Source of the DNA: Opitutales bacterium
GTDB taxonomy: Bacteria > Verrucomicrobiota > Verrucomicrobiia > Opitutales > JAJFLR01
Direction: 5' to 3'
Length of the DNA stretch: 64,000 nt
NCBI GenBank assembly: GCA_021772565.1
Contig: JAJFLR010000097.1
Coordinates: forward strand, 1,558-65,557
The notes beneath the pieces were generated by a model. That model saw nothing but the letters and a program-made list of their open reading frames with translations. It had not been told where the DNA came from and did not search any database. Shown piece after piece: positions 7,976 through 39,286 of this stretch. The translations under genes were made by a program, and so were the position numbers. Each line of letters opens with the position of its first letter. The stretch's first letter is position 1.

Positions 7976-7997
7976 TCCCCGCCGCTTGCGGCGGGGA
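7976..7997. terminator. Perfect GC-rich inverted repeat (terminator-like or IS200/605-type palindrome)
   Basis: tccccgccgc-tt-gcggcgggga followed by tctttattt on the + strand, between convergent genes. Confidence 0.5.
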
Positions 7998-8095: not shown

Positions 8096-8701
8096 TTATT
8101 CATCAGGGTATAAATCCCTTTTTACCAACTCACCTTTTTCCATCTCGACAATGGATTTAATTCTGCCGTTTGGGTACCAGGCTTTATTTATTCCATCTGG
8201 CTTACCATCGATAAAATGCATCTCTGTTGCCTTTTTCCCATTTTCGTGCCAACTGGTAAATGTTCCGGAGATTTCTCCCTCAATTATTTGAGCCTTTGAC
8301 TTCATCTGTCCATCGGTATACCATCGAATACGCCCTCCATGAGAGATGCCTTTTACAAAATGTTCTTCGACTTCCTTTTGCCCATCCTCATACCAGCCCA
8401 GAGATAAACCATGCGCCCGACCCTCTTTAATGGCGATAAGCACCTTCTGCTCACCACCCGGATAGTTTTCAACAAGATTGCCACTAAAAACCTCATCAGA
8501 GTCTTTTATAAATAAGGTACCATCCCTCAAATCGAGTTGCTCTCTGGTAAGTTCATTCGAAATTTCTACTGTAGCTTCAGTTTCAAATTCAGGTTGATAA
8601 TGTTGCCAGTAATACCAAATACCAACAGTGGAAATTAGCATTACAACAAGCAGCCACAGAAACAGGTTTTTAAATGGTTTTTTTAACTGCATTGTTAACA
8701 A
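8096..8701 (-). CDS. MORN-variant repeat protein (YwqK-like), single N-terminal TM
   Basis: Repeats GWYEDGQK, RWYTDGQMK, SWHENGKK, AWYPNGRIK. Confidence 0.85.
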   Translation of the reverse strand: MLTMQLKKPFKNLFLWLLVVMLISTVGIWYYWQHYQPEFETEATVEISNELTREQLDLRDGTLFIKDSDEVFSGNLVENYPGGEQKVLIAIKEGRAHGLSLGWYEDGQKEVEEHFVKGISHGGRIRWYTDGQMKSKAQIIEGEISGTFTSWHENGKKATEMHFIDGKPDGINKAWYPNGRIKSIVEMEKGELVKRDLYPDE

Positions 8702-8793
8702 GTAGCTCTTTACCTCATCTTGCGACGGTGTCTGTGGGAATCAAAAAATCATCAGTCAAAGTAAACCCGGATTTTGCACTAGGTAAACTTAAC

Positions 8794-9633
8794 TCATTTG
8801 ACATGCAGTTGGTAGAATTGGGGGCTTTTATCACTTTCATCAATTGATTCAGGTAACACTACGTAAATATCCTCATTATTCACATTAGGAGCAAGGTACA
8901 CAAAAAATGGGTTCGAGCCATCGGAACTGAGTGAAAAGCTCACATCTTTATAAGTGACAAGATCGTCTGATACTTTTAATGTATAAGTACGTCCCTCGAT
9001 CGCAAGAAATTGCAAACGGGCAAAAATCCCTACTGTTTCTATTATATCCAACCTGAAAGTCTCACTCTTCGTAAAGGCATAGGTGCCGGCGACATACTCC
9101 ACATAATTGCTAACGCCATCGCCATCGATATCACCTTCAGGACTAACATCGGCTAAAGTTTTAATTGCGTCATTTGGATTAAAATCAATCAAGTCTTTTT
9201 CCCATTGATCGGGTAGACCATCGCCATCGCTGTCGGCGCCCAGAGTCAGATCCAACCGTGTGCGGCCTCCCGGCTCGCCTATGGTATTATTTCCACCCAT
9301 AACTTCGAGCGGCACAAAAACATCATTACCAATGTTCACGCGCACCGTATAGGGCATAGTTGGACGCAATGCTGTTGGAACATAGAGAGTTTGGGTTATA
9401 CCCGCATCCATAGGAATTTTAAGCGAATAGTTTATTTCAGGCCCAATTGAAGAACTTATTGGCCCTGTGACAATATCTTTAGAATTACTGCTCAATGTAA
9501 TTGAAGCTGTAACAGTCAATGGAGTTCCTTTAGCATCACGTACGATTCCAAATACCTCATGATGAGGTGCTGGCGGAAATGCCGAGGCTGTTACGGTGAA
9601 TATAAATAAGACTATAAAGATTTGAATTTTCAT
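8794..9633 (-). CDS. Secreted protein with Asp-rich Ca-binding (DxDGDG) motifs and Verrucomicrobia-type C-terminal domain
   Basis: Signal peptide ending ASA; DSDGDGLPDQWE and DIDGDGVSNYVEYVAGT; C-terminal GRTYTLKVSDDL...FYQL; its ATG directly follows the upstream TAA. Confidence 0.8.
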   Translation of the reverse strand: MKIQIFIVLFIFTVTASAFPPAPHHEVFGIVRDAKGTPLTVTASITLSSNSKDIVTGPISSSIGPEINYSLKIPMDAGITQTLYVPTALRPTMPYTVRVNIGNDVFVPLEVMGGNNTIGEPGGRTRLDLTLGADSDGDGLPDQWEKDLIDFNPNDAIKTLADVSPEGDIDGDGVSNYVEYVAGTYAFTKSETFRLDIIETVGIFARLQFLAIEGRTYTLKVSDDLVTYKDVSFSLSSDGSNPFFVYLAPNVNNEDIYVVLPESIDESDKSPQFYQLHVK

Positions 9634-12600
9634 TTAATTTCCTGAGTATGAATAGGTTTCGAGGTAGAGTTCGATATCCTTCACCGATTCAATGAATATC
9701 TGCAAACCAACCTGCGGATTGCTCCTCAAGGTACTTCCCGGAATGACAATTTTCCAGCGACTGTTCCAAACCGATCGACCAATGAGACGGCTGTTTGTAA
9801 ATCCCGGTGCACTACTGAAAACAGTACCGCTTGGTACTGCTCGAAAAGCTTGATGTTTGCGAATAGCAAAGGCTTCCTCACTGAGTGAATCAGATGATAG
9901 AAATCCGGTATTTGTAGAAAAATCTGTATTGCCAATATTGAATGGTAATGGAATAGCCTGGTCATCGACACTCCAGCTACGCACAGTCGATACATCTCCC
10001 AATGGTGGTGAGCGCATCGAATCAACTCCTGTCGGAATCAGATAAATATGCGGCGTTGCACTGAGTGCATCTGGGTCCAGGAAGCCGAGATCCGGATCAG
10101 CGGGTGATGATGCACCAATTTCACTCAAGGTACCCCCAGTCGATGTCGGCGAATCCATGCCGACATAACCCTTAAATGCGATACCGGATGATCGAATTTT
10201 TGTGGCAAATGTACTAGGACTGAATCCGTGGTCGCCACCTGCCAGAGGCTCACCAAAAAAGTTGAAACCCTGAGCAATTGTCGTTTGGAATGGAATGACC
10301 AACCCAGGCACCGGTAGTCCGTCCTGATCAGCAATTTGCATACAGTAGCGGCGCACGTCAGGATCCTCAAGCACGTCACTCATACGGCTGGCTGCAAGTT
10401 TATCACTCCAATCCCCATCACCCGAAGCAGCCGGAATAATTCTGAAGTTTTCTCCACGTAATGAAAATTTAGTGCGATAACGATCCGGATTATTGAATCC
10501 GAGGCGTGTCTTTGCCACAGACCAGTCACCCTCCATTTGCGCCAGCACGCCAGAAAGCCCCGGGTCGCCCGTGTTTGAGGCAGTAAACTGAGGATTTCCA
10601 CTTTTATCAACTACACCAAGTGCACGACTTTGAACAATACTGTCAAAAAATGAAGCGGCTGCGCTACTGCCTGAAGTATGTAAAAGTCCCGTTTCATAAT
10701 CATAGGCGCGTGCTGCAAGGAAAGTGTAACGCGCTGCAAGATTGAAAAGCACACTGTATTTCTCAAGCGACTCATCACGAAATACGCGAAAAGCTAGGTC
10801 ACGAGTTCGATAGCCCTGAACGATAGCAGCCGCACGCTTGTTAAAGGTTTCACGTGCAGCCTGAACGGCAAACCCCCGTGCTTTAATTTCTTGAAAATTA
10901 CGCTGCGCCTGATCGTAAACACGCAATGCCTGATCCACGGCTGTTCGTAGTCCTCGAAAATCTGATAGCGCATCGTGTAAATCTTGAATAAGTTGTTTGC
11001 TCTGAGCATCCCAAAATGCTTCTTCCAGTTGTACTTCCAATAGTCGTTCTGCATCGACAATATTACTATCAATTTTCTCCAAGTCTGCTTCACTTGCAGA
11101 TGAAGCTGCCAGTAAAGCCGTTTTAATCCCAACACCTATTAACTTGGCTGCTCCACGACCTGGAGAAGTAGCGTCATTTGAAAATCCCAGAGTTGTGGGA
11201 AAAAATTCCGCAGCACCATCAGAAGCATCAATAGCAATTTCTGCTGCTATATCTGACGTGCGCTTAACTATAGAAAGCGCCAACTTTGAGTTTTCTATTT
11301 CTTTGATTTTATCATGAGCTGCTGACGTTAGTGACACTGCTTTTGTTCGTGCGGTTACCTCTGCATCATAGAGGTCAATTAAAGCGTTCATGTCATCTTT
11401 GAGATTTTCATAGTTGTCCATCGCCTGCCTGAGTCGTTGTCTCGCAGACAGAAGATCAGAAATTACACTCTGCATTTGTCCAGGATGGGCGCGTCGGCCA
11501 GTCCACGTTGCAGGTTTCACGACATCACCCTTGGCGTTGATAGTGAACATAACAGATTCTCCCAAGTTCAGTGTAGAGGAATTTGCATCAGCAAACTCTG
11601 GATCCAGAAATAATTCATACTCTCTGGATTCAAGAGTGGGATCAAAGAACAACTCCGGAGTCTCAACATAAGCAAAGTGCAGTAAATCAGGTCCAGTATA
11701 GCCCTGAGAATAGGTCTTGCCCGGACCTATATCATCGGGATAAGGCGTACCGTAGATCCCTATTAATTTGTTTTCAAAAGCGGTCAACTGAGATTCAATA
11801 GCAGCTCTATTTTCTGCAATACTGTTGTCCTGTTGCCGCAGAAATTCGGTTGAACTTTTTGCATTGTTAAACGCAAAAACCGCATTTTTAAGAGCACCTA
11901 CCGCTCTATCATAAACCTGTTCATAGTGCGTCTTGCCCGCATCGATTTCATTGGGTGAAATATCGAAACTGACCGCCCCTTTTGCAAGGCCTAACGGATT
12001 CAGTCGGGCGTCTGCATTATCAAGCGTAATCTGTATCAACTTGGCATCACCAACTACTTCGTCAAGTTCAGGTACTGTCGTTCGATCAACTTTTTCAATG
12101 CCTTCATTAACATTGTCTTCCTCAGGCAAAATTGAGTTGGCAGTCACCCAGTGGAAATAAGCTCCCTGGCCGGATCGACTAGCCCATTCATCTGTGCCCC
12201 ACCTGCGTGAAGTACCCGTTCTATCATTTGTCTGTCCATCACGTAAATGGGTCCAGCCAGCATTTTCATTCGCTGTAAATTGCTGTCTGTAGGTTAAATC
12301 GAGAACCTGATTCGCAGTTCGAGTAAGTGCTGCAGCTGCAGAGGCAAACTTACGCTCATCCTGATAATCAATTGATACCGGTTGTCCCAAGACAGAGACC
12401 GCTTCAACACGGGGTGTCCATGAAAAATGGTCGTTGCTTAACAAAGTGTAATAAACCTTCAATGCAGTGAGATAGTGACCATAGGCATCGCCATGCCCCT
12501 GAGGAAACTGTACCGTAGCATCAACAGCATCCGCTGCACCATCAACGTTGAGATCCTGTATATTATAGTTCAGCGAATAGATCGGTTCTCCTGAATTAAT

Positions 12601-15600
12601 TCCACCGGTAAAATTCCAGACAAGACGATTGTAGACAGGTGATACCACAACACCCGGCTGTAGATTATCATCTCGTCCGCGCAGTAGTGCTAGTTCTTCA
12701 TCGAGAACCGTGGCAAGTTGCCCTTTAAAAGCAAATAAGGCTGTATTAAATTCACCAAAGTCACCTCCCTCGGTGTCAAAGGCAATCGTTGGGTTGGATG
12801 CATCGGCAAATGCCTCATTACCCAGTAATTGGTAGAGGTCATTTAAATATCCGGCAGCGAGCAGCAGTGCGTCGTTGGCAGCCGGTACATTGAGTGGTGG
12901 GTTTCCACTGATGCTGAGGCTCTTACCTCTTCGTAAAACTGTTTCATAAATTTCTATCAGTCCAAAGTCGTCAATATTTTGGAGATTAAGTGCGATATCA
13001 CCCTCCCAGCGAGGCCCTGCTTGAGTGAGCAGAGAAACATCAGTATTAACATTATTGTTGAACAAATCTGTTACACGCTGTTCAAATGGATTGATACCAC
13101 CCAATACACGTTTGATCCAGCCCGGTGCCAATTGGGCAGGCAACCAACTCGACCAATTGCCAGCAGTGATAGCATTACCGCTGGTAGCAAATGCGGCGGC
13201 CGTTCCGGCTTTGGCTCGATAACGCATTGTGAAATAATTATCAGTCAATGTTTCTATAGTGGCACCTTCAATTGTATGAGTCGACTTGGCCACAACACCA
13301 TCGCCACTCTTGGCACCATCAGTGAGATCTTGCCAGCCTGAGAGGTCGACTGTTTCAATGCGGCCTTCCAGACGTAGATTAATTGTCGACTGGGAATTTA
13401 CATCGGATAGTGTATAAAGTTCAACAGTAACCGTATTGTCACCGGCGACAATTGCCTCAGGCATAATTCTAAAAACACGCTCTAAAGAATTTATATCACC
13501 GGGAGGTGTGGTAGCGACACTGTTTTCACGATTGGGAACATTCCAGACAGCTGCTTCTGTTCCATTAACATAAACAATAAGACCGTCATTATTTTCCAGG
13601 TCGATACTTAAAAATGCCTCAAATGGTAAAGGCAAAGCTTGTATAAATTCACGGCGAAGAACTGCATAGGGAATAGAAACTCCATTTTCTTCATTTCCAG
13701 CTCCATCATTAATGGTGATCTGCTGAGCGGGTAAATTGACCGTTTGCCATCCTTCTCCTGAATCATCAAAATCAACCGCCCTGAATTGAGCAATAATGGT
13801 ATCTGCAGGGTTATTGAAGAGTTGCCACGAACCATTTCCAACAATCGGTTGTGTCAATGCTGCAAAAGTGTAAATAACTGGCGGAAATCCCGCTACCGGT
13901 TGTGCTTTCAACCAGGCAAATTCAAAATCAGCCGGATCACCGGCATAATCTCCTGAATGTCGTAAATTCAGTTTCTCATCCAACGGATTTGCTGATTGAA
14001 CAATTTTTAATTCACCACGGTAAAGCGGTGCATCCACTTTGAATACGTGCAATGATACAGGCTCTGCAGGGGGAGTGAAGGCTGCACCATCTCCACTTGC
14101 TAATACAACATAACCGGTCCCTCCTCCAATAGCAGTCACGGCATAAGAATCGACTGCGGTATTTTCACTATTTACTTCAGCTAATTGTGTTGGACCAGCT
14201 TGAGTATTAAGTGCCGGATTTACAACAAACACACCTTTGCGTTTTGGATCTTCAATAAAAGTTTCCAGTGTTGTTGATAGTCCATCTATTGCAGTATGCC
14301 ATTGACTTTCCAATGAACCCCCTACTGCTACGAGTGCCTTACTATCAGTGACATCCTTTGCACTCATCACATTGAGCAGAAAGTAGTCTTCACCAAATGG
14401 AGCATCGATAAATTCACCAATGAAGACAAGGCTACCGAGTGGTCCGATATTGGGATCAAAAAAGAGTCGCTGACTAAGGTGCGGTGGCAGGTTGGGGAAA
14501 TATGTTTTGCCGAGAAAATCACTGGTCACCAATGAATCCGGTAATTTATCCAAACCACTTTCAGAAAGTGCAAAAGTCTTTTTCCTTGTAGGATCGAAGA
14601 GTCGCAAACTCGGTGTTTTTTCATCCACGTCACCCCCAATTGATTGTTGATAGAGCACACGCATGCTGGTTTGGCCACGCACAGCTGGCAGTCCACGTTT
14701 TGGTAGAGCCAGACTTTCAGAAATATTTAATATTGGTGGAGAACTCGGCCAAATTGGCGTAAATACCACATCAGCGGGAATGCCTGTTATCGGATCTCCA
14801 TTAAATCCACCTGCTGCATTCATTCCATTGGTAAAGGGTCTTAAATAAGGTACAATTGTGCCAACGTCCGGTTTTGTAAGTCCCGGAAAATCAAACTCTG
14901 CTTGCGTCTTGTAAAAATAGTGCATGACGAAGCTTTTTGCCTGATCGGTAACTGTACCGACATTGACTCCATCTGCATGGGGGCCACGATAAATCCATGT
15001 AGATCCTTTACGGTCCACGTAGGTGAACCTGTCATAATGTTCAATACCTTCAGAATTTGGGGCAAAATTTGCCGGCACGTCAGTCGGTGCACCGACTTCT
15101 CTGTTCCTTACAATATTATTCTCGTCCACCGGCAACTGAATGAGAGGCAGCGGTAAAGGTGCCTGTAATATCGCGCCAACAGTGCCTTCATAGTCGAAGG
15201 TATGTGCGGTATTTTCACGAACGACACGACGGATGACCATTGCCGGTAAATCATCTTCTGCAGTATAGTCCACCAACACATAGGGCTGAGACGATGTTGG
15301 GATATTTAAATCATCACGAAGCACATAGGCGACACCGCCGCTCATAAGCGCATGTTCTTCATTTGGATTATAACCGGGTAGTTGAGGATCTGCCTGTCGA
15401 TAAATGGATCCGGTAGCGGCAATACCTAATTCTCCTGACCCATCATTGCGGGCAAGAATAATTTCATCATTGAGATTTCCATCATCTGGATCGGTTACCG
15501 GCCATTGCAACTTGTATCTAATAACGAATCTCGGCCAGTGATTTACTGAAAAAGTGGACGATATAGGCTGGTTCATGGCATACCACCAAATAACAAGTTC

Positions 15601-17631
15601 ATCGTTACCGGGAAGTGCATTGACTGGTATAATTACGCCGTTGCCTGCCTGTTCAAACCCATGGGTAAAAGGATCAAAGTAAGCTCCCGGATTATAGGCG
15701 TTACCGAACTCCTCACGAATATGGCCGACCATAACGGACGAATTGGAAGGTGCATTAACACGTGTTCCAACGAGTGCAGTAAAGGGATTGTTCTCAAAAG
15801 AGACCCGAGCAGTTTCACTAATTGCTCCACCCTGCGTCTTCGTCACAATACCCGTAACAAGATTGATAGTGTAATCTGTGGTTATTGCATAGGAAGCTCC
15901 TGTGTCCGGATCAGCAAGCGATACATTGCTGATATTTGTGTAGCCGGTGCTGAATTGATCGTTTTCATCAAAAGTTCCCAATACAATCTGTGAGCCATCG
16001 AAGCTGCCGATTTCGGATTGGAGGATAGAGAAGACCCGCTCAAACCAGATTTCCTCATCGATCGTGTAGCGAATCAGTGCACGTCCTGTTGGGTCGGATG
16101 GACTGACAACCGTATAAAAAACATTTTGCGGGGTCAGTTTAGCGTGAGTTCTGGTAGGATCATCCTGATAGGCGATTACCGGATTATCCACAGAGTTAAG
16201 CTGTACGCCTGTTGCAATGGATGCATCACTACCCTCCGGTCGCGCATAGATCGAGTAAAATTCGCTCAACTCTTCAATGGTTGGAGTCGGCATAGTGGCC
16301 GCACGATACTCCTCCGGCCACTTGAAAATGTAGCCCACATATTCCTTAGGCCAAAATAGCTGTGCCACTCCCTCTTCCGTCCAGTATATAAGCACCTCAT
16401 TACTCTGCTGCTCAGGCAGTGGCCCGTCGCCATCCAGATCAAATGGGGAAGTTTCTCTAATAGCGTAAAGTGTGCGCTTTGTTCCACCCAGTGACAGATG
16501 CTCAAACAGATAAGGATCGCTTTGATCGCTAAGATTTTTGATCACTACAGCTTTCAAACTTTCATCGTTATCTGTAGGCGATACTTTCTCACCAATGGAA
16601 ACTTTAAGTTCCTCCGGCCGGGTCTCCTGAATGACATCAACAATTTCAAAACCCAAATGATCGCGGTAAATTCGGTCTGGCTCACGTAAATCACCGAGAA
16701 ATTCTACAAAGACACGACCTTCTATATTATAAGCGTGAATTGAGTTGTCCAAACTGTCGAACCAGAGAGTGCGTACTTCAGGAGGTAAGTTCAGTCCCGG
16801 GTTTTGCGGATCGTACGGATTTTCAGGATCAAAATCAAATGTATTAGATTCCGCAACTTCTTTAAGGAATAAGCTATTGTAAGCAATGTTTACATCGCCC
16901 ACACGTGACTCCGGAACTTGCACGGGCGGCCCGTTAAAATCACGTTCAGTCCAATAGATAGTTTTCGTCTGCTTTACCGGAGAGCCGGAAACATTGTAGG
17001 TCTGGGTAAAGCTGTTACCAGTTACCCGCTCCTTCCAGTCAATTGTGATGACACCCGGTTCCGTAGCAAAGACTCTCTCTGCGTGTGGACTCCAATAAAA
17101 TCTGCCTGTTGAAGAATTAGCGGGTTCCTTGAAATAAAATTCGGCCTCAGCAAATACTTTTGGGTCGAGGACGCTGCCATCCGGTTTACGATTTGGTCTT
17201 AGGATTTCTGATCCCATTGAAAATGAGACCAGTTGCACAACCATAGTGCGACTCATTTTAACACCGACAAGCTGGATAGTTTGGTTAGTCAGTTTGGTTT
17301 CTCCATCCAAATCAAGAGGTGTAAAGGAAGGGCTTAATATTGTCCCCGGTGTTCCGGCTACTTCACTAGTGCTGCCGGCAACAATTGTGCCATCAATTTT
17401 TATCCGTGTCGCTTGCCAGCCGCCAAATACCGTACCGCTTTCAAATTGATTGCCGGTACGAGCTGTTGGTCCTGGTGGCTCGGGGTCAGGAGGTACTCCA
17501 GCCTCGCTGAAGACATTGCGTACACTGTTCTCAATTTGAGGAAGTTGTGCAGAAAGATTGCCTGCAAGTGCCAGCATACCGGTTAAAATGAGGACTTTAG
17601 GCTTTAGTTTCATAGATGCAGAGTATTTCAA
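9634..17631 (-). CDS. Giant secreted protein (2665 aa) with putative Tc-toxin TcA-like C-terminal pore/translocation region
   Basis: Intact ORF with Sec signal peptide. Beta-rich N-terminal two-thirds, long helical region with hydrophobic hairpin (AAEFFPTTLGFS...AAKLIGVGIKTALLAA), YSVLFNLAARYTFLAARAYDYE and terminal WKIVIP...VKDIELYLETY. ORF is secure; the TcA similarity is a motif-level inference. Confidence 0.7.
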   Translation of the reverse strand: MKYSASMKLKPKVLILTGMLALAGNLSAQLPQIENSVRNVFSEAGVPPDPEPPGPTARTGNQFESGTVFGGWQATRIKIDGTIVAGSTSEVAGTPGTILSPSFTPLDLDGETKLTNQTIQLVGVKMSRTMVVQLVSFSMGSEILRPNRKPDGSVLDPKVFAEAEFYFKEPANSSTGRFYWSPHAERVFATEPGVITIDWKERVTGNSFTQTYNVSGSPVKQTKTIYWTERDFNGPPVQVPESRVGDVNIAYNSLFLKEVAESNTFDFDPENPYDPQNPGLNLPPEVRTLWFDSLDNSIHAYNIEGRVFVEFLGDLREPDRIYRDHLGFEIVDVIQETRPEELKVSIGEKVSPTDNDESLKAVVIKNLSDQSDPYLFEHLSLGGTKRTLYAIRETSPFDLDGDGPLPEQQSNEVLIYWTEEGVAQLFWPKEYVGYIFKWPEEYRAATMPTPTIEELSEFYSIYARPEGSDASIATGVQLNSVDNPVIAYQDDPTRTHAKLTPQNVFYTVVSPSDPTGRALIRYTIDEEIWFERVFSILQSEIGSFDGSQIVLGTFDENDQFSTGYTNISNVSLADPDTGASYAITTDYTINLVTGIVTKTQGGAISETARVSFENNPFTALVGTRVNAPSNSSVMVGHIREEFGNAYNPGAYFDPFTHGFEQAGNGVIIPVNALPGNDELVIWWYAMNQPISSTFSVNHWPRFVIRYKLQWPVTDPDDGNLNDEIILARNDGSGELGIAATGSIYRQADPQLPGYNPNEEHALMSGGVAYVLRDDLNIPTSSQPYVLVDYTAEDDLPAMVIRRVVRENTAHTFDYEGTVGAILQAPLPLPLIQLPVDENNIVRNREVGAPTDVPANFAPNSEGIEHYDRFTYVDRKGSTWIYRGPHADGVNVGTVTDQAKSFVMHYFYKTQAEFDFPGLTKPDVGTIVPYLRPFTNGMNAAGGFNGDPITGIPADVVFTPIWPSSPPILNISESLALPKRGLPAVRGQTSMRVLYQQSIGGDVDEKTPSLRLFDPTRKKTFALSESGLDKLPDSLVTSDFLGKTYFPNLPPHLSQRLFFDPNIGPLGSLVFIGEFIDAPFGEDYFLLNVMSAKDVTDSKALVAVGGSLESQWHTAIDGLSTTLETFIEDPKRKGVFVVNPALNTQAGPTQLAEVNSENTAVDSYAVTAIGGGTGYVVLASGDGAAFTPPAEPVSLHVFKVDAPLYRGELKIVQSANPLDEKLNLRHSGDYAGDPADFEFAWLKAQPVAGFPPVIYTFAALTQPIVGNGSWQLFNNPADTIIAQFRAVDFDDSGEGWQTVNLPAQQITINDGAGNEENGVSIPYAVLRREFIQALPLPFEAFLSIDLENNDGLIVYVNGTEAAVWNVPNRENSVATTPPGDINSLERVFRIMPEAIVAGDNTVTVELYTLSDVNSQSTINLRLEGRIETVDLSGWQDLTDGAKSGDGVVAKSTHTIEGATIETLTDNYFTMRYRAKAGTAAAFATSGNAITAGNWSSWLPAQLAPGWIKRVLGGINPFEQRVTDLFNNNVNTDVSLLTQAGPRWEGDIALNLQNIDDFGLIEIYETVLRRGKSLSISGNPPLNVPAANDALLLAAGYLNDLYQLLGNEAFADASNPTIAFDTEGGDFGEFNTALFAFKGQLATVLDEELALLRGRDDNLQPGVVVSPVYNRLVWNFTGGINSGEPIYSLNYNIQDLNVDGAADAVDATVQFPQGHGDAYGHYLTALKVYYTLLSNDHFSWTPRVEAVSVLGQPVSIDYQDERKFASAAAALTRTANQVLDLTYRQQFTANENAGWTHLRDGQTNDRTGTSRRWGTDEWASRSGQGAYFHWVTANSILPEEDNVNEGIEKVDRTTVPELDEVVGDAKLIQITLDNADARLNPLGLAKGAVSFDISPNEIDAGKTHYEQVYDRAVGALKNAVFAFNNAKSSTEFLRQQDNSIAENRAAIESQLTAFENKLIGIYGTPYPDDIGPGKTYSQGYTGPDLLHFAYVETPELFFDPTLESREYELFLDPEFADANSSTLNLGESVMFTINAKGDVVKPATWTGRRAHPGQMQSVISDLLSARQRLRQAMDNYENLKDDMNALIDLYDAEVTARTKAVSLTSAAHDKIKEIENSKLALSIVKRTSDIAAEIAIDASDGAAEFFPTTLGFSNDATSPGRGAAKLIGVGIKTALLAASSASEADLEKIDSNIVDAERLLEVQLEEAFWDAQSKQLIQDLHDALSDFRGLRTAVDQALRVYDQAQRNFQEIKARGFAVQAARETFNKRAAAIVQGYRTRDLAFRVFRDESLEKYSVLFNLAARYTFLAARAYDYETGLLHTSGSSAAASFFDSIVQSRALGVVDKSGNPQFTASNTGDPGLSGVLAQMEGDWSVAKTRLGFNNPDRYRTKFSLRGENFRIIPAASGDGDWSDKLAASRMSDVLEDPDVRRYCMQIADQDGLPVPGLVIPFQTTIAQGFNFFGEPLAGGDHGFSPSTFATKIRSSGIAFKGYVGMDSPTSTGGTLSEIGASSPADPDLGFLDPDALSATPHIYLIPTGVDSMRSPPLGDVSTVRSWSVDDQAIPLPFNIGNTDFSTNTGFLSSDSLSEEAFAIRKHQAFRAVPSGTVFSSAPGFTNSRLIGRSVWNSRWKIVIPGSTLRSNPQVGLQIFIESVKDIELYLETYSYSGN

Positions 17632-17654
17632 GTAGAGATTAATAGTAGCCTTTT

Positions 17655-19166
17655 TTATTTTGCAGATGCATCAAGCAATGTATCCAACCTGCTTTCAAGT
17701 TGCGTCATTCGTGATTTCAATTCCGCATTCTCATTCTGCAACGTTTTTATTTGCTCTAAATTTTCAATAGACTTGGTATTTAATTCTTTAATTGCATTAA
17801 CGCTTGCCCAATGAATAGGATCAACTTTCATACTTAAATATACACCGTCAACAGCACTCTCAAGTGTCCCATTAACCGCTTCCGGAATAACATCTAGTAC
17901 ATCCTGCGCAATAAATCCGATCTCCTCTCCATCAGAAGTCAGCCCCAAATCATTATCATCCTTGTAACGGAATTTAACAGGTTGCAGCTGTAGGATAGCA
18001 TCAAGGCCTCTTTCATAAACCCGAATATCCTGCTTCAACCGTGAATCCGAGAATGTTTGCCAAGATGACCCACCCGAGCTCTTTCCAGCGTTGCCAGTCA
18101 CCGTAAATTTAGTATCATTGGAGCCTCCCAAGCCAGATACTGGCCAAAAAGATGCAATTCGTGCATTTGTAATCGTATTTTTAATTTGTAGCACTTGATT
18201 AGAATTCCCATTTACACTGAAACTCCCCTGTGGTCCAGATACTAGAATACTAGATAAATTTAGTTTGTTAGCAGTCACCGCACTATTAGCGATTTCACTA
18301 TTACCAACAGCGTTTGCCGCAATCTCACTTGCTCCAACGGCATTGGCTGCAATATCAGAGGCCGTTATTGAATTATCAGCAATATCAACACTCCCTATTG
18401 TGCCATTACGAATATCACTTCCTTGAACAGAATTATCAACAATTTCACTTGTGCCGACAGCATTGGCTGCAATTTCGCTCGCACCTACCGCATTGGCAGC
18501 AATTTCAGCTGCTGCCACAGCATTGGTTGCAATATCAGAGGCTGTTATTGAATTATTTATAATTTCGCTTGAGCCAACAGCATTATCTGCGATTTGGGCA
18601 GAACCCACCGCATTGCCGGCAATCTTCCCTACACCGACCGCTCCATCTGCAATTGTATCTGAAAACTTTGCATGTTCCGCAACAACAGCAAAGGGCGATG
18701 CCAGCAATGCGAGCCGTGGTGAAATCTCACCGGGTGTTGCAGGTGGATTTAATACAGTTAATCCTAAAAAACGCTCCTTTCCATTAAATGCACTGAGTAA
18801 TTTATTTTGCGCAACTGAACCCGTTAGTGGAAGGGGGTCACCATCGGCAGTTGCTATGACTTCTCCTTCACCCAAGCGGACAGAGAAAAGGCCTGTTCCT
18901 GTCACAGTTACAATCTGTTTTTCGGCCCAGATCAAATTACCCCCACTCTGGCTATCCCAAATACGAAAGCGGATTTCGAAGTTGGCAGCAGTACCTGTAG
19001 TGCCAGGACCACCTGTACCCGTTATTGGACCGCCATTGCTGTTGAGTAACTGTCCCTGATAATCAATAAGGGCCGGAGCTCCTGCAACCTGAGCGTTGAG
19101 GATTGCACCGAAGTGTGCATAGAAGAATAAAGTCAGGATGACTGCTATTTTATTTTTCGTTTTCAT
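17655..19166 (-). CDS. Secreted tail-fibre-like trimeric adhesin with C-terminal peptidase S74 intramolecular chaperone
   Basis: Signal peptide; N-domain IDYQGQL...FRIWDSQSGGNLIWAE...GLFSVRLG; 10-aa repeats; SDSRLKQDI, IGFIAQDV..VIPEAV, NAIKEL plus coiled coil. Confidence 0.88.
   Translation of the reverse strand: MKTKNKIAVILTLFFYAHFGAILNAQVAGAPALIDYQGQLLNSNGGPITGTGGPGTTGTAANFEIRFRIWDSQSGGNLIWAEKQIVTVTGTGLFSVRLGEGEVIATADGDPLPLTGSVAQNKLLSAFNGKERFLGLTVLNPPATPGEISPRLALLASPFAVVAEHAKFSDTIADGAVGVGKIAGNAVGSAQIADNAVGSSEIINNSITASDIATNAVAAAEIAANAVGASEIAANAVGTSEIVDNSVQGSDIRNGTIGSVDIADNSITASDIAANAVGASEIAANAVGNSEIANSAVTANKLNLSSILVSGPQGSFSVNGNSNQVLQIKNTITNARIASFWPVSGLGGSNDTKFTVTGNAGKSSGGSSWQTFSDSRLKQDIRVYERGLDAILQLQPVKFRYKDDNDLGLTSDGEEIGFIAQDVLDVIPEAVNGTLESAVDGVYLSMKVDPIHWASVNAIKELNTKSIENLEQIKTLQNENAELKSRMTQLESRLDTLLDASAK
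18271..18653 (-). repeat. Intragenic 30-bp/10-aa tandem repeat (IAxNAVGxxE), about 13 units
   Basis: IADGAVGVGK IAGNAVGSAQ IADNAVGSSE ... IAANAVGASE ... IANSAVTANK in the translation. Confidence 0.9.
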
Positions 19167-19221
19167 AATTTCGGATTCTGATTTTGGTGATTCAATTGTT
19201 AAATTTTTTAATTACTAGAAG

Positions 19222-20982
19222 TTATTCAATTAAAGTAGCTATATCGGATACACGATAGAGAATAAAGGTGCCCTTTACTTTGATCGGTTGAGCACGCAGA
19301 CCAGTGATTGTCTCCTCATAATCGCCACCAAGTATGGTGCTGCCCCAGTTGAGGTCTGAAATACCGAGCTCATCCGGGTCGGCCTCCCATATCAACTTGA
19401 TGTCGCGATTTACAGTATAAGATTCATCACCGGCAAGTAATGGTGTTGTGCTAAACTGTAGATCTTTATTATCATGGTCAGGGTGATAGGTATGAACAAA
19501 GGGGTTTGTTTGCGCATCATGTGCCAGAACTGAACTGAGTGTGACTTCACCTGTCAAACCCAGGTCACCCGTTGCGACTACTTTCTCGTCGAGTGGAAAA
19601 CTTGCACTGGACAGACGACGCGCATTAGCCAGTTTCTCCGGATCAAGCTCGGACTCTTCTGCGGCAATGATGGTATTTCCAGAGGTGTTCTCGCCAATAT
19701 AAACCTGCTGCTGTAAATTTACTGTGCCATTATCTGAGCGATGGAGAATTATTCTCAATGGAAAGGCGGAAGGTGCGTCGGCATCTGCATCGGTCGTGAC
19801 ATCGACAGTCGCCGTACCATCACCCACAGGAGCCGGAGCTGCAGTTATTTGATCAACCTGGTTGACTATTGCTGTGCCAACCCAAAGGCCGGAAAGTGAT
19901 GTTTTAACAGCTCGCACCGGTAGATCGACACGTGAAATTTTTTCAGAATCAGTGACTTGAAGAATGCTCTGAAAAACATCATCGGGATTACCAGTCATAG
20001 TTGAACGGTCGACCGCGATAACGATCTCGACCTCTTCTCCTGCTTCGAGATCGAAAGTTTCAGCAGAATCAAAATCTTCAAATTCGAAATTGCCGGTGGT
20101 TGGATCCAGTTCACCGCGTATTTGCAGAGGGACGGGTCCAGCATTTGCATCCTCTCCAGTAGGTGGCACAGCCGATACTGCAGGAGTCACTGTAGCAGTG
20201 ACCTGACTGTTTGTAAGATTTTTTATTTTAAGTGTGGTAACAGCGCCTGTATCGCGAAAATTGAGTCCTGCGTTACCTGTCGTCACACGCAACGGACCGT
20301 AGAAGTCGGTAAATTGCGAACTTTGTATCCAGTAGGCCTGGCCACGTGAAACGGCTTTTAGACGCGGTGCAGTTACCCGCACGGGATTCGATTCAAGTGC
20401 TCCGCCGTCATAGAAAAATATATCGGCTGCCGTGCTCAAGGTGTTGCTGAAAGAGAGGAAGCGCTCGAAGTTGCGGTCGGTTACACTATCCGGTGTCTGC
20501 ATAGGAAAGCCGAAAAAATTGAGTCCCGAGCTGGACCAGGAATAATTCGGTGGTGTCGGTTTTCCAGTTAAATTTAATGTAATATCGGGTGATGTATCAG
20601 CAACTTTTATAAGATAGGTACCATTTGCCACAAAATTGCTTATAGTAGATTCTGTAGGCTTCCCACGTTTCCAGATCAACCATTGATTATCAGACTGTAC
20701 CGGTGTAGCCGGTGATTGAGTGAACTGTGTGCTCGATGCAGTTGTATTCCAGTACCAGACCTCTTCAATAGCGGTTTCGCCCGACAATAGATCATCGATG
20801 GACCCGTGTGAAACATCGAGTGAAAGCCAAATTGCATTCCAGCCCGCTTTCAGAGGATAGTCTTCGGAAACCCATTGCGCCAAACCTCGGCTTGTAGCGC
20901 TAAACACCACAACTATGGCAAATATATATCTCAAAAAAATGAAAAAACTGCTGTTCCTGGAATAGCTGATGTGTGTTCCCAT
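19222..20982 (-). CDS. Secreted beta-rich hypothetical protein, first gene of the fibre/TcA-like operon
   Basis: Signal peptide ending GLA-Q; PLKAGWNAIW motif; C-terminal NPFVHTYHPDHDN. Confidence 0.8.
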   Translation of the reverse strand: MGTHISYSRNSSFFIFLRYIFAIVVVFSATSRGLAQWVSEDYPLKAGWNAIWLSLDVSHGSIDDLLSGETAIEEVWYWNTTASSTQFTQSPATPVQSDNQWLIWKRGKPTESTISNFVANGTYLIKVADTSPDITLNLTGKPTPPNYSWSSSGLNFFGFPMQTPDSVTDRNFERFLSFSNTLSTAADIFFYDGGALESNPVRVTAPRLKAVSRGQAYWIQSSQFTDFYGPLRVTTGNAGLNFRDTGAVTTLKIKNLTNSQVTATVTPAVSAVPPTGEDANAGPVPLQIRGELDPTTGNFEFEDFDSAETFDLEAGEEVEIVIAVDRSTMTGNPDDVFQSILQVTDSEKISRVDLPVRAVKTSLSGLWVGTAIVNQVDQITAAPAPVGDGTATVDVTTDADADAPSAFPLRIILHRSDNGTVNLQQQVYIGENTSGNTIIAAEESELDPEKLANARRLSSASFPLDEKVVATGDLGLTGEVTLSSVLAHDAQTNPFVHTYHPDHDNKDLQFSTTPLLAGDESYTVNRDIKLIWEADPDELGISDLNWGSTILGGDYEETITGLRAQPIKVKGTFILYRVSDIATLIE

Positions 20983-36033: not shown

Positions 36034-36989
36034 TATGCAGTTATCCTTTTTCTTTTAAATCTATTTATAGCTGGCAGTATCATTTGATAAACTAGTTCTG
36101 TGAAATCATAACCATTACAACTTGAGCTTTTAGGAAGTAAGCTGGTTGGTGTTAACCCTGGTATTGTATTTATTTCAAGAAAGTAACATTCACCTTCTTC
36201 AGAAATCATAAAATCGACACGTGCAAAATCACGGCATCCACAAATATTATAGGATTTAATTGCAAATTCCATGAGTTCTTTTTCCTGCCAATTTTCTATC
36301 AGAGCCGGATAACGGTAGTCTGTTAAGCCTTTTGTATATTTATGTTCATAATCGTATACACCATTCTTGGGCAAAATTTCTACTATTCCCATGCACTTTT
36401 CGTTGACTATGCCCACTGTAACCTCTCGTCCGGTTATTTTCTTTTCGAACAACCAATCACCAGGATATAAGTTATTTGTGGCGTTGTTAAGTTCGTGAAT
36501 ACCATTTACAATTGTTAGGCCAACACTACTTCCTTCACGAATTGGTTTGATAACGATGTCATTGCCAAGATAATCTATTATATCACTGAGGTCAGGCAGA
36601 TTAGTTGCTTCACCTTTTAAAAAAGGTGGTATTCTTACACCTTGAGAACTTACGCGTGAATTTGTTTCATATTTGTCGAAACATAATCGGCTTGATTCGA
36701 TGCCGCTTCCTGCATAACAAAATCCTTTGTCTTCCAAAATTTGTTGCAACTCACCGTCTTCTCCAAATGTTCCATGAAGCGTTGGAAATATAACCATGTT
36801 TTCAGGATCCAGATTTTTCGGTAGAGAATTTTGTTTAATATCTATTAAATCTACATCGATTCTGTTACTTAACGCTTTTGCGACAGAATTGCCGGATACT
36901 AAGGAAACATCTCTTTCGGATGATATTCCTCCTGATAAAACACCAACTTTTATCGGTGGGCTGTTTCTGGAAATTACATTATCTATCAT
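36033..36989 (-). CDS. ddl: D-alanine--D-alanine ligase
   Basis: GGISSERDVSLVSG, LHGTFGEDG, GSSVG, ARVDF, EINTIPG. Confidence 0.96.
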   Translation of the reverse strand: MIDNVISRNSPPIKVGVLSGGISSERDVSLVSGNSVAKALSNRIDVDLIDIKQNSLPKNLDPENMVIFPTLHGTFGEDGELQQILEDKGFCYAGSGIESSRLCFDKYETNSRVSSQGVRIPPFLKGEATNLPDLSDIIDYLGNDIVIKPIREGSSVGLTIVNGIHELNNATNNLYPGDWLFEKKITGREVTVGIVNEKCMGIVEILPKNGVYDYEHKYTKGLTDYRYPALIENWQEKELMEFAIKSYNICGCRDFARVDFMISEEGECYFLEINTIPGLTPTSLLPKSSSCNGYDFTELVYQMILPAINRFKRKRITA

Positions 36990-39286
36990 AATATGTCCTC
37001 CCAGTTAATTCCCATAATTTTTGCTTCCGGCTCAAGGTAAATGCTTCTCCTGTTGTATACCTCTAGTCGAATATCTTTTATTAACGAGATGATTTCATTG
37101 CTTGTCGCACCACCCCTATTGACAATAAAATTTCCATGGATTTCAGATACTTCTGCATTGCCAATACGATGCCCTTTTAATCCTAACTGATCAATTATCT
37201 GACCTGCACTTTCACCAATTGGGTTCTTGAAAATGCAACCAACACTTGATTCTCTTGGCTGTGTTAATTTTCTTTTTTGAGAGTAATCAGCCAAGGTCTT
37301 TTTAATTGTGTCATTATTCACGTCTGAATGTGCAAAAAATTTAGCACTGATAGCAGTTGTGTTTATTAAATTATCACATTCACGATAATTTATATTCAAC
37401 ATTTCTCTTGGTATTGTTTCCAATTCATTCTTGGAATTTAAAATTAGTATTGAATCTACAATATCATAAATACTCGATCCCATTGCACCAGCATTCATTC
37501 GTAACGCGCCTCCAACAGTTCCCGGTATTCCTTCTAAAAACTCAAAACCTTTCAAGTAATTATTAGAAGCAAAACTACACAATTGTTTTAGACGTAAGCC
37601 GGCTCTGGCAACAATATGTGATTCATTAATTAATTTTAGCTCACTCCAATATTTGTGGTTTAAGCTAATTACCATTCCGTCAAATCCATCATCGGGAATT
37701 ATTAAGTTAGAACCCCGACCGAGTATGTAATAGGGAACTCTGTTATTGTTACATTTTTTTATGATACTACATAAATCGTTTTGTGATGCAGGTTCGCTAT
37801 AATATTTTGCGTTACCACCGATTCTTAATGTCGTTTTATCAGATAGTTTAATGTCTGTTAGAATTTTTGTTGATTTGGAGATTCCATTATAAAGATTATT
37901 AACAAAAAAATTATTAGAATAATTATCAAATGAAATAGGATTATCTTTTAATATATTGATAAAATAATTTGCCCATAGATCAATATCGCCTGCTCCAATA
38001 AAAATAATTATAGAGGGTTCTTTTACTATTTTTCTCAGTTGATTACCTAACTCAGAATATGAATTAATTAAATGTGCTGATCTCAATTTTGATGTGCAAC
38101 GCAAAATGTCTTCACTATTGCCGCCTTCAATATTAGGTTCACCTGCGGAGTAAGCAGGCAGCAATAGCAACTCATCTAATGTGCTTAGTTTATCAGCGAA
38201 CTCTTCTTTAAATTGTTTTGTTCTGGAATGTCTGTGTGGTTGAAATACACCAACTAATTTCCTGTCATTAAAGGTAGATTGTACAAATTTTATTAGTTCA
38301 TTAATTTCTGTTGGGTGATGTGCATAATCTTCGTAAATAATTAATTCCCTTGAATTATAAATTCTTGTTTGACGTCTTTTAATTCCGGGAAATGCATCTA
38401 GCGAATTTTCTATAAATGGTTCACATATGATATTTGTAAGAGTGAGTGCAGCGGAAGCATTTTCTCCGTTAAAGTTTCCCACAGCATTTATTTCAGAAGA
38501 CATTTGAGGAAACCTGCCATTCAATCGTAAATGTAGCTTTTCAGGTGTCGTGTTTGAAATTTCACAAACATAATCTCCTTTACCTCCAAAACTGATCAAC
38601 TCAGCTATCATTGGAGAACGGATTAATTTTTTTATACTGGTTGAATGCGATGGGTAAATAATTTTTCCCTTAGTACGTGAAAATAATGATTCAAATGTTT
38701 CATGCAAATCTTCGATTGTTTCATACTGATCAGAATGATCCCAGTCCAGATTCACTATCAATGTAATTTCAGGTGCGAACAAATCTATTGTTCCATCACT
38801 TTCATCTATTTCAGCGACGAGCCACTCACTATTAGTTGACAGTGCCGGTGTAAATTCATTTTGGCTAAATAAACCACCTAAAATATAGTCAAAAGAAAAG
38901 TTGTTTTTTAAAAGTGATACAATTGACATCCCGGCAGTTGTAGTTTTGCCATGGCTTCCAACAATTGCAATTAGCTTTTTTCGAGTTGCTGTCTCTGCTA
39001 GCATTTCACCTCTTTTCAAAACAGGTAATCTTTTTTCTCTGGCTTCTAAAAGAAACGGATTATCTTTTTTAACAGCGTTTGAATAAACTACTAATTGCGT
39101 GCCCGGAGGAAGATATTTATCGGTTGTTAAAACTATTTGTTCTTTGTCCAATAACTCTTTAACATTTGATTTGATTGAACTGTCATAACCGCATATCTGA
39201 AAACCACATTGCTTCAAATAAATTGCAAGTGGAGCCATTCCCATGCCGCATATACCTATCATAAATATGTTTTCCTTATGCATCAT
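36986..39286 (-). CDS. murC-murB: Fused MurC-MurB (UDP-MurNAc-L-Ala ligase / UDP-MurNAc dehydrogenase)
   Basis: GICGMGM, GSHGKTTT, DYAHHPTE, FQPHR; then TTLRIGG, GRGSNL, LEGIPGTVGGA, GCIFKNP, HGNF. Confidence 0.95.
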   Translation of the reverse strand: MMHKENIFMIGICGMGMAPLAIYLKQCGFQICGYDSSIKSNVKELLDKEQIVLTTDKYLPPGTQLVVYSNAVKKDNPFLLEAREKRLPVLKRGEMLAETATRKKLIAIVGSHGKTTTAGMSIVSLLKNNFSFDYILGGLFSQNEFTPALSTNSEWLVAEIDESDGTIDLFAPEITLIVNLDWDHSDQYETIEDLHETFESLFSRTKGKIIYPSHSTSIKKLIRSPMIAELISFGGKGDYVCEISNTTPEKLHLRLNGRFPQMSSEINAVGNFNGENASAALTLTNIICEPFIENSLDAFPGIKRRQTRIYNSRELIIYEDYAHHPTEINELIKFVQSTFNDRKLVGVFQPHRHSRTKQFKEEFADKLSTLDELLLLPAYSAGEPNIEGGNSEDILRCTSKLRSAHLINSYSELGNQLRKIVKEPSIIIFIGAGDIDLWANYFINILKDNPISFDNYSNNFFVNNLYNGISKSTKILTDIKLSDKTTLRIGGNAKYYSEPASQNDLCSIIKKCNNNRVPYYILGRGSNLIIPDDGFDGMVISLNHKYWSELKLINESHIVARAGLRLKQLCSFASNNYLKGFEFLEGIPGTVGGALRMNAGAMGSSIYDIVDSILILNSKNELETIPREMLNINYRECDNLINTTAISAKFFAHSDVNNDTIKKTLADYSQKRKLTQPRESSVGCIFKNPIGESAGQIIDQLGLKGHRIGNAEVSEIHGNFIVNRGGATSNEIISLIKDIRLEVYNRRSIYLEPEAKIMGINWEDIL

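Follow-up and report, generated by a model that had tools for sequence, protein, structure and literature searches.

A putative fibre with phage-type modules in a conserved cassette of predicted secreted proteins in Verrucomicrobiota

We examined a 64,000-nucleotide stretch of the genome of an Opitutales bacterium (Verrucomicrobiota; positions 1,558 to 65,557 of contig JAJFLR010000097.1), referred to here as the window, and focused on a minus-strand gene at 17655..19166 that encodes a fibre-like protein of 503 aa plus the stop codon. As judged from its sequence, this protein is a chimera, in which a cell-specific N-terminal domain (hereafter the N-domain) is joined to phage-derived modules. 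Comparative sequence data place the gene in a conserved cassette of four predicted secreted proteins, namely P586 (586 aa in the window), one to three N-domain fibres, a giant protein of 2,450-3,015 aa, and P279 (279 aa in the window). The closest known kind of protein is the mosaic adhesive trimer (MAT) fibre of Bdellovibrio bacteriovorus. We consider it fairly probable that the fibre is exported by Sec, forms a trimer of MAT design, and serves as the exchangeable binding subunit of the cassette, docked by its N-domain, with the giant perhaps acting as a translocator resembling TcA of the toxin complex (Tc) family.

Anatomy of the fibre protein

The first-pass annotation had placed an open reading frame (ORF) at 17655-19166. 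Exactly this frame is present on the minus strand, while the plus strand across the same interval is full of stops. At the start of the protein, a Sec-type signal peptide is recognisable by eye at aa 1-26 (19089..19166), with MKTKNK, a hydrophobic core, and LNA/Q at its end; it contains no lipobox Cys. The N-domain follows at aa 27-170 (18657..19088) and is our proposed docking module. An N-terminal domain marked by YQGQL...GLFSVRLG had been described earlier, and the alignments bear this out as a conserved block of ~145 aa with the motifs P..IxYQG..., FRIW, W.E, G.FSV.LG, and PR...S.P[FY]A.

Behind the N-domain lies a shaft of the phage tail-fibre type (aa 171-305; 18252..18656). The repeats claimed for it are present as 13 decapeptide units (AVGxSEIAxN) at aa 176-305. 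Shaft self-identity peaks at period 10 (0.46) and again at period 20 (0.39), and stays at or below 0.13 at all remaining periods from 5 to 24. A short head or tip comes next (aa 306-372; 18051..18251). It is not conserved between cassettes, showing 24-50% identity over short stretches only when compared with eight other cassette fibres, in agreement with the variable head noted before.

The C-terminal part (aa 373-503; 17658..18050) consists of a Peptidase_S74 domain and a putatively helical tail, in which heptad-like repeats are visible by eye at aa ~456-503. The Pfam match (PF13884) covers aa 373-431 and takes in all but the last of the 58 profile positions (1-57), scoring 61.7 bits where the cut-off is 22 (E 8.1e-17). 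It opens with SDSRLK (373-378), which holds S373 and K378 of the previously proposed Ser/Lys dyad. The S-D-x3-K pattern is kept in 31/31 other S74-bearing cassette fibres. The S74 region aligns with the intramolecular chaperone domain of MYRF (7dc3) and with a phage tail fibre (8jov); among solved structures, MYRF 7dc3 gives the best match by sequence to aa 373-479 (E 6.5e-4). Because the dyad is conserved and the S74 domains of endosialidases and MAT fibres are known (PMC10769870), self-cleavage is predicted between F372 and S373.

Comparing the protein with phage sequences, we find that its two ends behave differently. The region of aa 170-490 matches tail-fibre families in PHROGs (phrog_1980 at E 1.3e-24 and 24 others), and a tblastn search with aa 182-503 matched 589 of 50,697 phage records, most of them annotated as tail fibres. 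The N-domain (aa 29-181) gave 0 matches at E<=0.01 against the same 50,697 records. Likewise, viral contigs held no close relative of it in a single-protein search, which detects close relatives only, and its profile had no match among PDB sequences.

We also built an N-domain profile from 40 N-domains and read it against 1.84 billion cluster representatives. It found 69,171 representatives at E<=1e-3, 23,941 at E<=1e-10, and 619 at E<=1e-30. Among the 150 matches listed, the domain sits nearly always at residues ~25-160, just behind a signal peptide, and this position leads us to regard it as a large cellular family of N-terminal modules. Three proteins of 1,289-1,542 aa (P0124, P0125, and P0161), which are among the best-scoring matches of the library, carry three tandem N-domain copies each.

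The cassette and the exchange of fibre modules

The fibre gene comes second among five closely spaced genes on the minus strand, in the order P586 (19222..20982), fibre, giant (9634..17631; 2,665 aa), P279 (8794..9633), and a MORN-repeat protein. The first four of them all begin with signal-peptide-like sequences. P586, the first gene of the operon, encodes a protein with an all-beta model built by AlphaFold2 (AF2). The true start of the giant is probably an ATG six codons inward (MKLKPKV...). The start of P279 abuts the stop of the giant, and P279 carries a bacterial TSP3 repeat of the calcium-binding type (Pfam TSP3_bac, E 8e-6).

Searching 301 sampled genomes of the phylum with up to four candidates scored per genome, we found P586 relatives in 38, of which 24 were near full length. 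A cross-tabulation showed the N-domain in 24/24 of the genomes with a near-full-length P586. In a species-representative collection, at least 564 stretches encode a P586 relative. The best 80 of these carry 76 Verrucomicrobiota names and four unclassified labels (bacterium, uncultured bacterium, metagenome), and the named groups include Akkermansiaceae, Haloferula, Prosthecobacter, Opitutaceae, Chthoniobacteraceae, Pedosphaera, and Puniceicoccaceae.

We combined these best 80 stretches with 20 fetched loci of 20 kb to give 100 loci, which are perhaps not all independent cassettes because the genome collections behind the two sets overlap. In 93 of the 100, an N-domain ORF is found at E<=1e-10, directly after P586 in 90 and only upstream in three (L055, L098, L112). 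In L025 and L026, an N-domain ORF stands ~2.7 kb upstream, before P279. The first-pass annotation would have been contradicted by homologous operons lacking any fibre gene; N-domain ORFs occur in 95/100 loci. Contig ends cut four of the five others (L059, L069, L072, L096), and the fifth is L023. A giant of 2,450-3,015 aa comes next wherever the contig permits and stands behind the fibre in nearly all loci, and a P279 homologue is found in most, either before P586 or after the giant. Several orders of the phylum share this arrangement.

To compare the cassettes domain by domain, we aligned the window's fibre, P586, and giant with those of eight other cassettes. The N-domain, P586, and giant identities, in this order, were 68, 57, and 56% for L043; 60, 51, and 58% for L044; 49, 46, and 52% for L045; 51, 46, and 54% for L047; 54, 44, and 51% for L050; and 45, 38, and 47% for L031. 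L046 gave 55 and 46% for the N-domain and P586, and the second cassette of the same genome gave 47, 35, and 41%. Thus, N-domain identity parallels that of P586 and the giant across cassettes, but most shafts, heads, and S74 parts do not align from one cassette to another. The distant L031 is different in that its shaft (57%) and S74 region (46%) resemble ours no less than its N-domain does (45%). A conserved N-domain next to shaft and S74 parts that are either unalignable or independently similar indicates that modules are exchanged at the junction after the N-domain.

The tips tell of the same exchange. Among 83 cassette fibres (82 others and the window's), Pfam assigns S74 to 32, Collar to 20, Gp10_C to 1, and DUF2345 to 1, with two sub-threshold matches and 27 without a match. 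This is the pattern that would be expected of a constant N-domain facing the assembly and a variable remainder facing the target. The fibre had been called the specificity determinant of its operon. The pattern of an exchangeable subunit, with an N-domain that tracks the cassette and tips that vary, agrees with this proposal, but related N-domains also occur outside cassettes, so that it holds only in part.

The genome of the window has a second, divergent cassette on another contig (L042 1-15322; G000:C25:60000-75321). There, P586 is found in two ORFs (391 and 805 aa), together with a 426-aa N-domain fibre, a 2,559-aa giant, and a P279 homologue, at a guanine-cytosine (GC) content of 42-46%. 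Its fibre ends in DUF2345 (VgrG-C-like) instead of S74. The two fibre genes are the only N-domain genes of this genome. A 5.9-Mb genome (G065) has at least eight cassettes, on contigs C2, C4, C20, C23, C32, C37, C41, and C106 (loci L034, L041, L123, L129, L130, and L135), and several of these cassettes carry two or three tandem fibres. Just upstream of a further cassette, an RCC1-repeat protein (L028 20-1063) ends in Peptidase_S74, which is another cellular use of this chaperone domain.

We also checked the surroundings of the operon. As had been claimed, phage genes are absent from the neighbourhood: Pfam finds no phage family among 27 neighbouring ORFs, where it recognises MscS, a flavin adenine dinucleotide oxidoreductase, dnaN, a hybrid sensor kinase, and the cell-division genes ddl, ftsQ, ftsA, and ftsZ. 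No tRNA gene was found in the 64 kb, Rfam had no match anywhere in the window, and of the proteins P586, fibre, giant, and P279, the fibre alone matches PHROGs. The cassette (8096-20982) is a compositional island with a GC content of 45.0%, compared with 36.4% in the rest of the window, and the GC content at third codon positions is 51-57% in the cassette and 44% in the MscS gene. The high GC content of both cassettes of this genome suggests that the cassette may have been acquired from a GC-richer relative.

These data bear on whether the gene could be a prophage or tailocin leftover, that is, a tail fibre that has lost its virion. A shaft and an S74 domain of phage type and the GC-rich island would fit such an origin. 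However, virion, integrase, and lysis genes and a tRNA attachment site were all missing beside the gene, the fibre has a signal peptide and an N-domain without any phage match, its neighbours in the cassette are non-phage genes whose order is kept throughout the phylum, and the model of the giant has only weak viral matches. We therefore place the gene outside any prophage remnant and reject a prophage origin as extremely improbable.

Docking of the fibre, P586 and the giant

On the reading that we favour, all cassette proteins would be exported by Sec, as their signal peptides imply. The S74 chaperone would then help three fibre chains to fold and cut itself off between F372 and S373, freeing the tip. 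This cutting step is proposed because of the conserved dyad and because the substitution S782A blocks processing of the Bdellovibrio fibre Bd3182 (PMC10769870). From the synteny and the parallel divergence, we infer that the N-domain would hold the fibre on P586 or on the giant. The mosaic pattern suggests that the tip would bind a target surface and that its exchange would change the target. More speculatively, the giant may insert a helical channel as TcA does.

Several observations weigh against docking on a cassette partner and would suit a different account, in which the fibre is a free-standing surface adhesin of the MAT type whose N-domain sits on a general envelope component, as is presumed for the Bdellovibrio MATs, and which is merely co-transcribed or co-inherited with the giant-protein genes. 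The N-domain superfamily is very large, and its matches include proteins labelled Planctomycetota, Xanthomonadales, Marinicella, and Pseudomonadota. Among 53 N-domain-positive sampled genomes, 29 have no near-full-length P586 match. We fetched 13 strong N-domain loci without a reported adjoining P586; eight turned out to lie in cassettes, and five (L124, L128, L132-L134) have no cassette gene in 20 kb. This breadth and the occurrences without cassette genes mean that the N-domain does not generally need the cassette. Conversely, in L023, P586 is followed directly by the giant, and no fibre is found in the available 2.3 kb upstream. Moreover, the parallel divergence is by itself no proof of contact, since linked genes are expected to diverge in parallel from co-inheritance alone.

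Nevertheless, we regard a free-standing adhesin as unlikely. The high-scoring N-domain subfamily is almost always found between P586 and the giant (90 of the 100 loci), in an order conserved over several orders of the phylum. Both N-domain genes of the window's genome sit in cassettes, and genomes with multiple cassettes, such as G065, have their own fibre or fibres for each of them.

At two of the loci outside cassettes (L124 8582-11764 and L128 7888-10832), two or three N-domain proteins are encoded in tandem, with no P586, giant, or P279 gene in 20 kb. They belong to this fibre family but lie away from any cassette.

P586 itself has no match in Pfam, PHROG, or PDB sequences and none above the cut-off in NCBIfam, and a protein atlas returns only unnamed Verrucomicrobiota clusters. 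Its AF2 model has a mean predicted local distance difference test (pLDDT) score of 79.8 and a predicted template-modelling (pTM) score of 0.71. Performing structure comparisons with VIA, we find that the middle domain (aa 229-361) resembles PapD-like chaperones as well as ASH/MSP domains (Z 9-10; root-mean-square deviation (rmsd) 2.3-3.2 A over ~100 residues). The C-terminal domain (aa 362-580) is closed-barrel-like; it matches the soluble PsbO (Z 9.0) and avidins (~8) and also the membrane barrels OmpW (8.8), OprF-N (8.4), and NspA (8.0). Since these folds are common, the matches fix no function. A motif, NPFxHxYHPDHDN, at aa 493-505 (19468-19506 of the window) is nearly invariant in 19 homologues; the model has it in a loop region, and it resembles a site for metal binding or catalysis.

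The fold matches raise a question of whether P586 could be the export or anchor device of the fibre, combining a PapD-like periplasmic chaperone with an outer-membrane barrel, and leaving the giant as a separate surface protein without Tc-like activity. P586 stands directly before the fibre in 90/100 loci, its middle domain matches YadV, SafB, and chaperones of the CfaA and FimC types at Z 9.3-9.9, and the membrane barrels matched by its C-terminal domain are 8-stranded. Yet, the matches to the ASH domain of CEP192 (Z 10.1), PsbO, and avidins are equal to these. Outer-membrane barrels usually end in a terminal aromatic residue, while the C-terminus of P586 (...ATLIE) has none. In at least two well-covered loci (L023 and L059), furthermore, the giant comes directly after P586. 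On balance, we find this role of P586 improbable.

The giant, the other candidate for holding the fibre in our favoured reading, has no Pfam match at E<=0.01, no match among PDB sequences, and nothing in the protein atlas. A crude rule finds a signal peptide at the start of 14/21 giants. Conservation in the giant is concentrated at aa ~1500-2000 and 2250-2665, and a helical stretch at aa ~2050-2250 is poorly conserved. A variable insert lies at aa ~1250-1450 (13282..13884), with identities of 0.10-0.14 and gaps of 0.50-0.63 in 20 homologues. In three giant homologues, the C-terminal 1,200 aa include Laminin_G_3 domains.

We modelled the last 1,196 aa of the giant by AF2 from an alignment of 21 sequences (pLDDT 66, pTM 0.61). 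The model has helices of 90 residues (aa 2052-2141) and 159 residues (aa 2156-2314), followed by an alpha/beta domain (aa 2381-2662). In a Foldseek search against the PDB, the 21 best matches were all TcA proteins (XptA2, XptA1, TcdA1, TcdA4, YenTcA, and TcaA-TcaB) at E 1.6e-8 to 4.5e-6, with alignments mostly of ~950-1,085 columns and two near 620-645; the next match, at E 0.014, was again a TcA. VIA placed model residues 410-1193, that is, aa 1879-2662 of the giant (9646..11997), on residues 2007-2516 of TcdA1 with Z 9-11. For the TcB-binding domain alone (6l7i_A), it gave Z 9.5 with an rmsd of 4.2-4.4 A over 151-154 of 179 residues. Accordingly, this region is predicted to resemble the TcA channel and TcB-binding domain. 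Against viral structures, the model matched one uncharacterised giant-virus protein at E 8e-7, and tape-measure proteins only at E>=5e-3.

By these comparisons, the giant would share with TcA a similar size, variable beta-rich inserts in an otherwise conserved protein, and a long helical hairpin followed by an alpha/beta domain that is colinear with TcdA1 2007-2516 in the model. Other observations weigh against this likeness. The TcA link comes from a single model of the above pLDDT, the Foldseek TM-scores against TcA are 0.13-0.22, and in both VIA runs unrelated coiled coils and tetratricopeptide repeat proteins equal the Z of 9-11. A profile of the C-terminal region of the giant found no TcA chain among PDB sequences, and no TcA Pfam family appeared at E<=10 on 21 such regions. 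The partners of the giant are P586, P279, and the fibre, with no TcB or TcC gene in the cassette. SpvB (PF03534) and TcdB_toxin_midN (PF12256) were not found in the 95%-complete genome, and RHS-repeat genes occur only on other contigs (C30, C31, C59, C87, C110, and C111). To our knowledge, classical TcA has no Sec signal, unlike the cassette proteins. Since the TM-scores, Z values, sequence and Pfam searches, and partner genes weigh against it, we keep the TcA likeness of the giant as an evenly balanced lead and not as family membership.

In the same genome, very large RHS-repeat ORFs lie on C30, C31, C87, C110, and C111, one of which, on C30, is an open frame of 5,033 aa. A survey of Tc loci reports that TcC proteins are almost wholly confined to Proteobacteria and Firmicutes (PMC7861908).

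If the C-terminal third of the giant is indeed TcA-like as predicted, the assembly may be a membrane-inserting or translocating device aimed by the fibre. Taken to its full extent, this would give a Sec-exported machine, often present in several copies per genome, in which a TcA-like giant is aimed by plug-in phage-type fibres with S74, tail-collar, or gp10-like tips docked via the N-domain. We put forward this fuller picture as a tentative possibility.

Relation to known fibres and minor features

The MAT family of B. bacteriovorus comprises 21 members, of which 13 have S74 (Caulton et al. 2024, PMC10769870). All 21 carry a beta-rich N-domain of ~130 aa after the signal peptide, with no PDB homologue. 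The domain is presumed to bind a surface element, a partner that, in the words of the article, 'awaits further study', and the S74 consensus is given as SDxxxK. The window's fibre likewise begins with a putative signal peptide and a conserved, putatively beta-rich N-domain of ~130-145 aa, and we liken the two domains by position and size. Like the MAT S74 subgroup (e.g. Bd3182), it is encoded by a chromosomal, non-phage gene. MAT and cassette fibres are also alike in their phage-like fibre modules, which are predicted to be trimeric in the cassette fibres, and in their variable tips, and some of each kind have S74 with SDxxxK (13/21 MATs and 32/83 cassette fibres).

The two kinds differ in several respects. 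They come from different phyla, and Bd3182 has 922 aa compared with 503 aa here. A weak search of longer proteins with aa 27-175 found no Bdellovibrio relative of the N-domain, and with the N-domain profile no Bdellovibrio appeared among the best 120 matches. The Bdellovibrionales and Bacteriovoracaceae proteins that did match (P0031, P0093) share only the shaft with the window's fibre. Finally, our fibre has a fixed position in a cassette with three other predicted secreted proteins, while the MAT article names no partner.

Phage fibres and tailspikes with PF13884, such as the K1F endosialidase, the T5 L-shaped fibre, and 8jov, resemble the window's fibre in bearing a C-terminal S74 Ser/Lys dyad on a repetitive fibre. 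Their N-terminus serves virion attachment; ours instead has a Sec signal and a cellular N-domain, with no virion genes nearby. MYRF (7dc3) would share the same self-cleaving trimerisation module, but it is a eukaryotic membrane-bound transcription factor, unrelated to the fibre outside the S74 domain.

What is new here is the fixed place of a MAT-like fibre in a conserved, widespread, and apparently undescribed cassette with a possibly TcA-like giant. Searching the literature on Peptidase_S74 or Tc toxins in Verrucomicrobia, we found no description of the cassette. Sources on Tc toxins with tail fibres deal, in their accessible parts, with Tc clusters, extracellular contractile injection systems and PVC devices, type VI secretion systems, and delivery tools, and describe no such pairing. 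A 2026 review adds nothing on the binding partner of the MAT N-domain.

According to the MAT article, experimental work on cellular fibres made of phage parts has so far been confined to Bdellovibrio (PMC10769870). The fixed place in the cassette names three concrete candidate partners for the fibre's N-domain, and the fuller picture of a TcA-like giant aimed by docked fibres, if true, would give the first genomic pointer to what MAT-type N-domains hold on to. It would also describe a hybrid of Tc-toxin-like translocators and phage receptor-binding proteins. If the giant works like TcA, the known range of such machines would be wider and would include a modular way of aiming them. If it does not, the cassette would still stand for a large family of secreted proteins, so far unexplored, from a phylum that abounds in water, soil, and biofilms.

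We noted a few further features around the operon. The last gene on the strand encodes the MORN-repeat protein of 201 aa (8096..8701; Pfam MORN_2, E 3.6e-13). It is an accessory, since L031 alone has one (E 8e-31) among 20 loci. Between convergent genes lies a GC-rich hairpin (7976..7997; no strand assigned) with nine pairs, eight of them G-C, which is the likely end of the operon. Scanning for promoters and terminators around the operon, we obtained sites no more numerous than in shuffled sequences. No RNA sequencing run is listed as containing the stretch, and four DNA sequencing runs contain it, all from one biofilm-metagenome study. Farther along the window, inside the cell-division cluster, one ORF of 766 aa (36986-39286) fuses a MurC-like Mur ligase with MurB domains.

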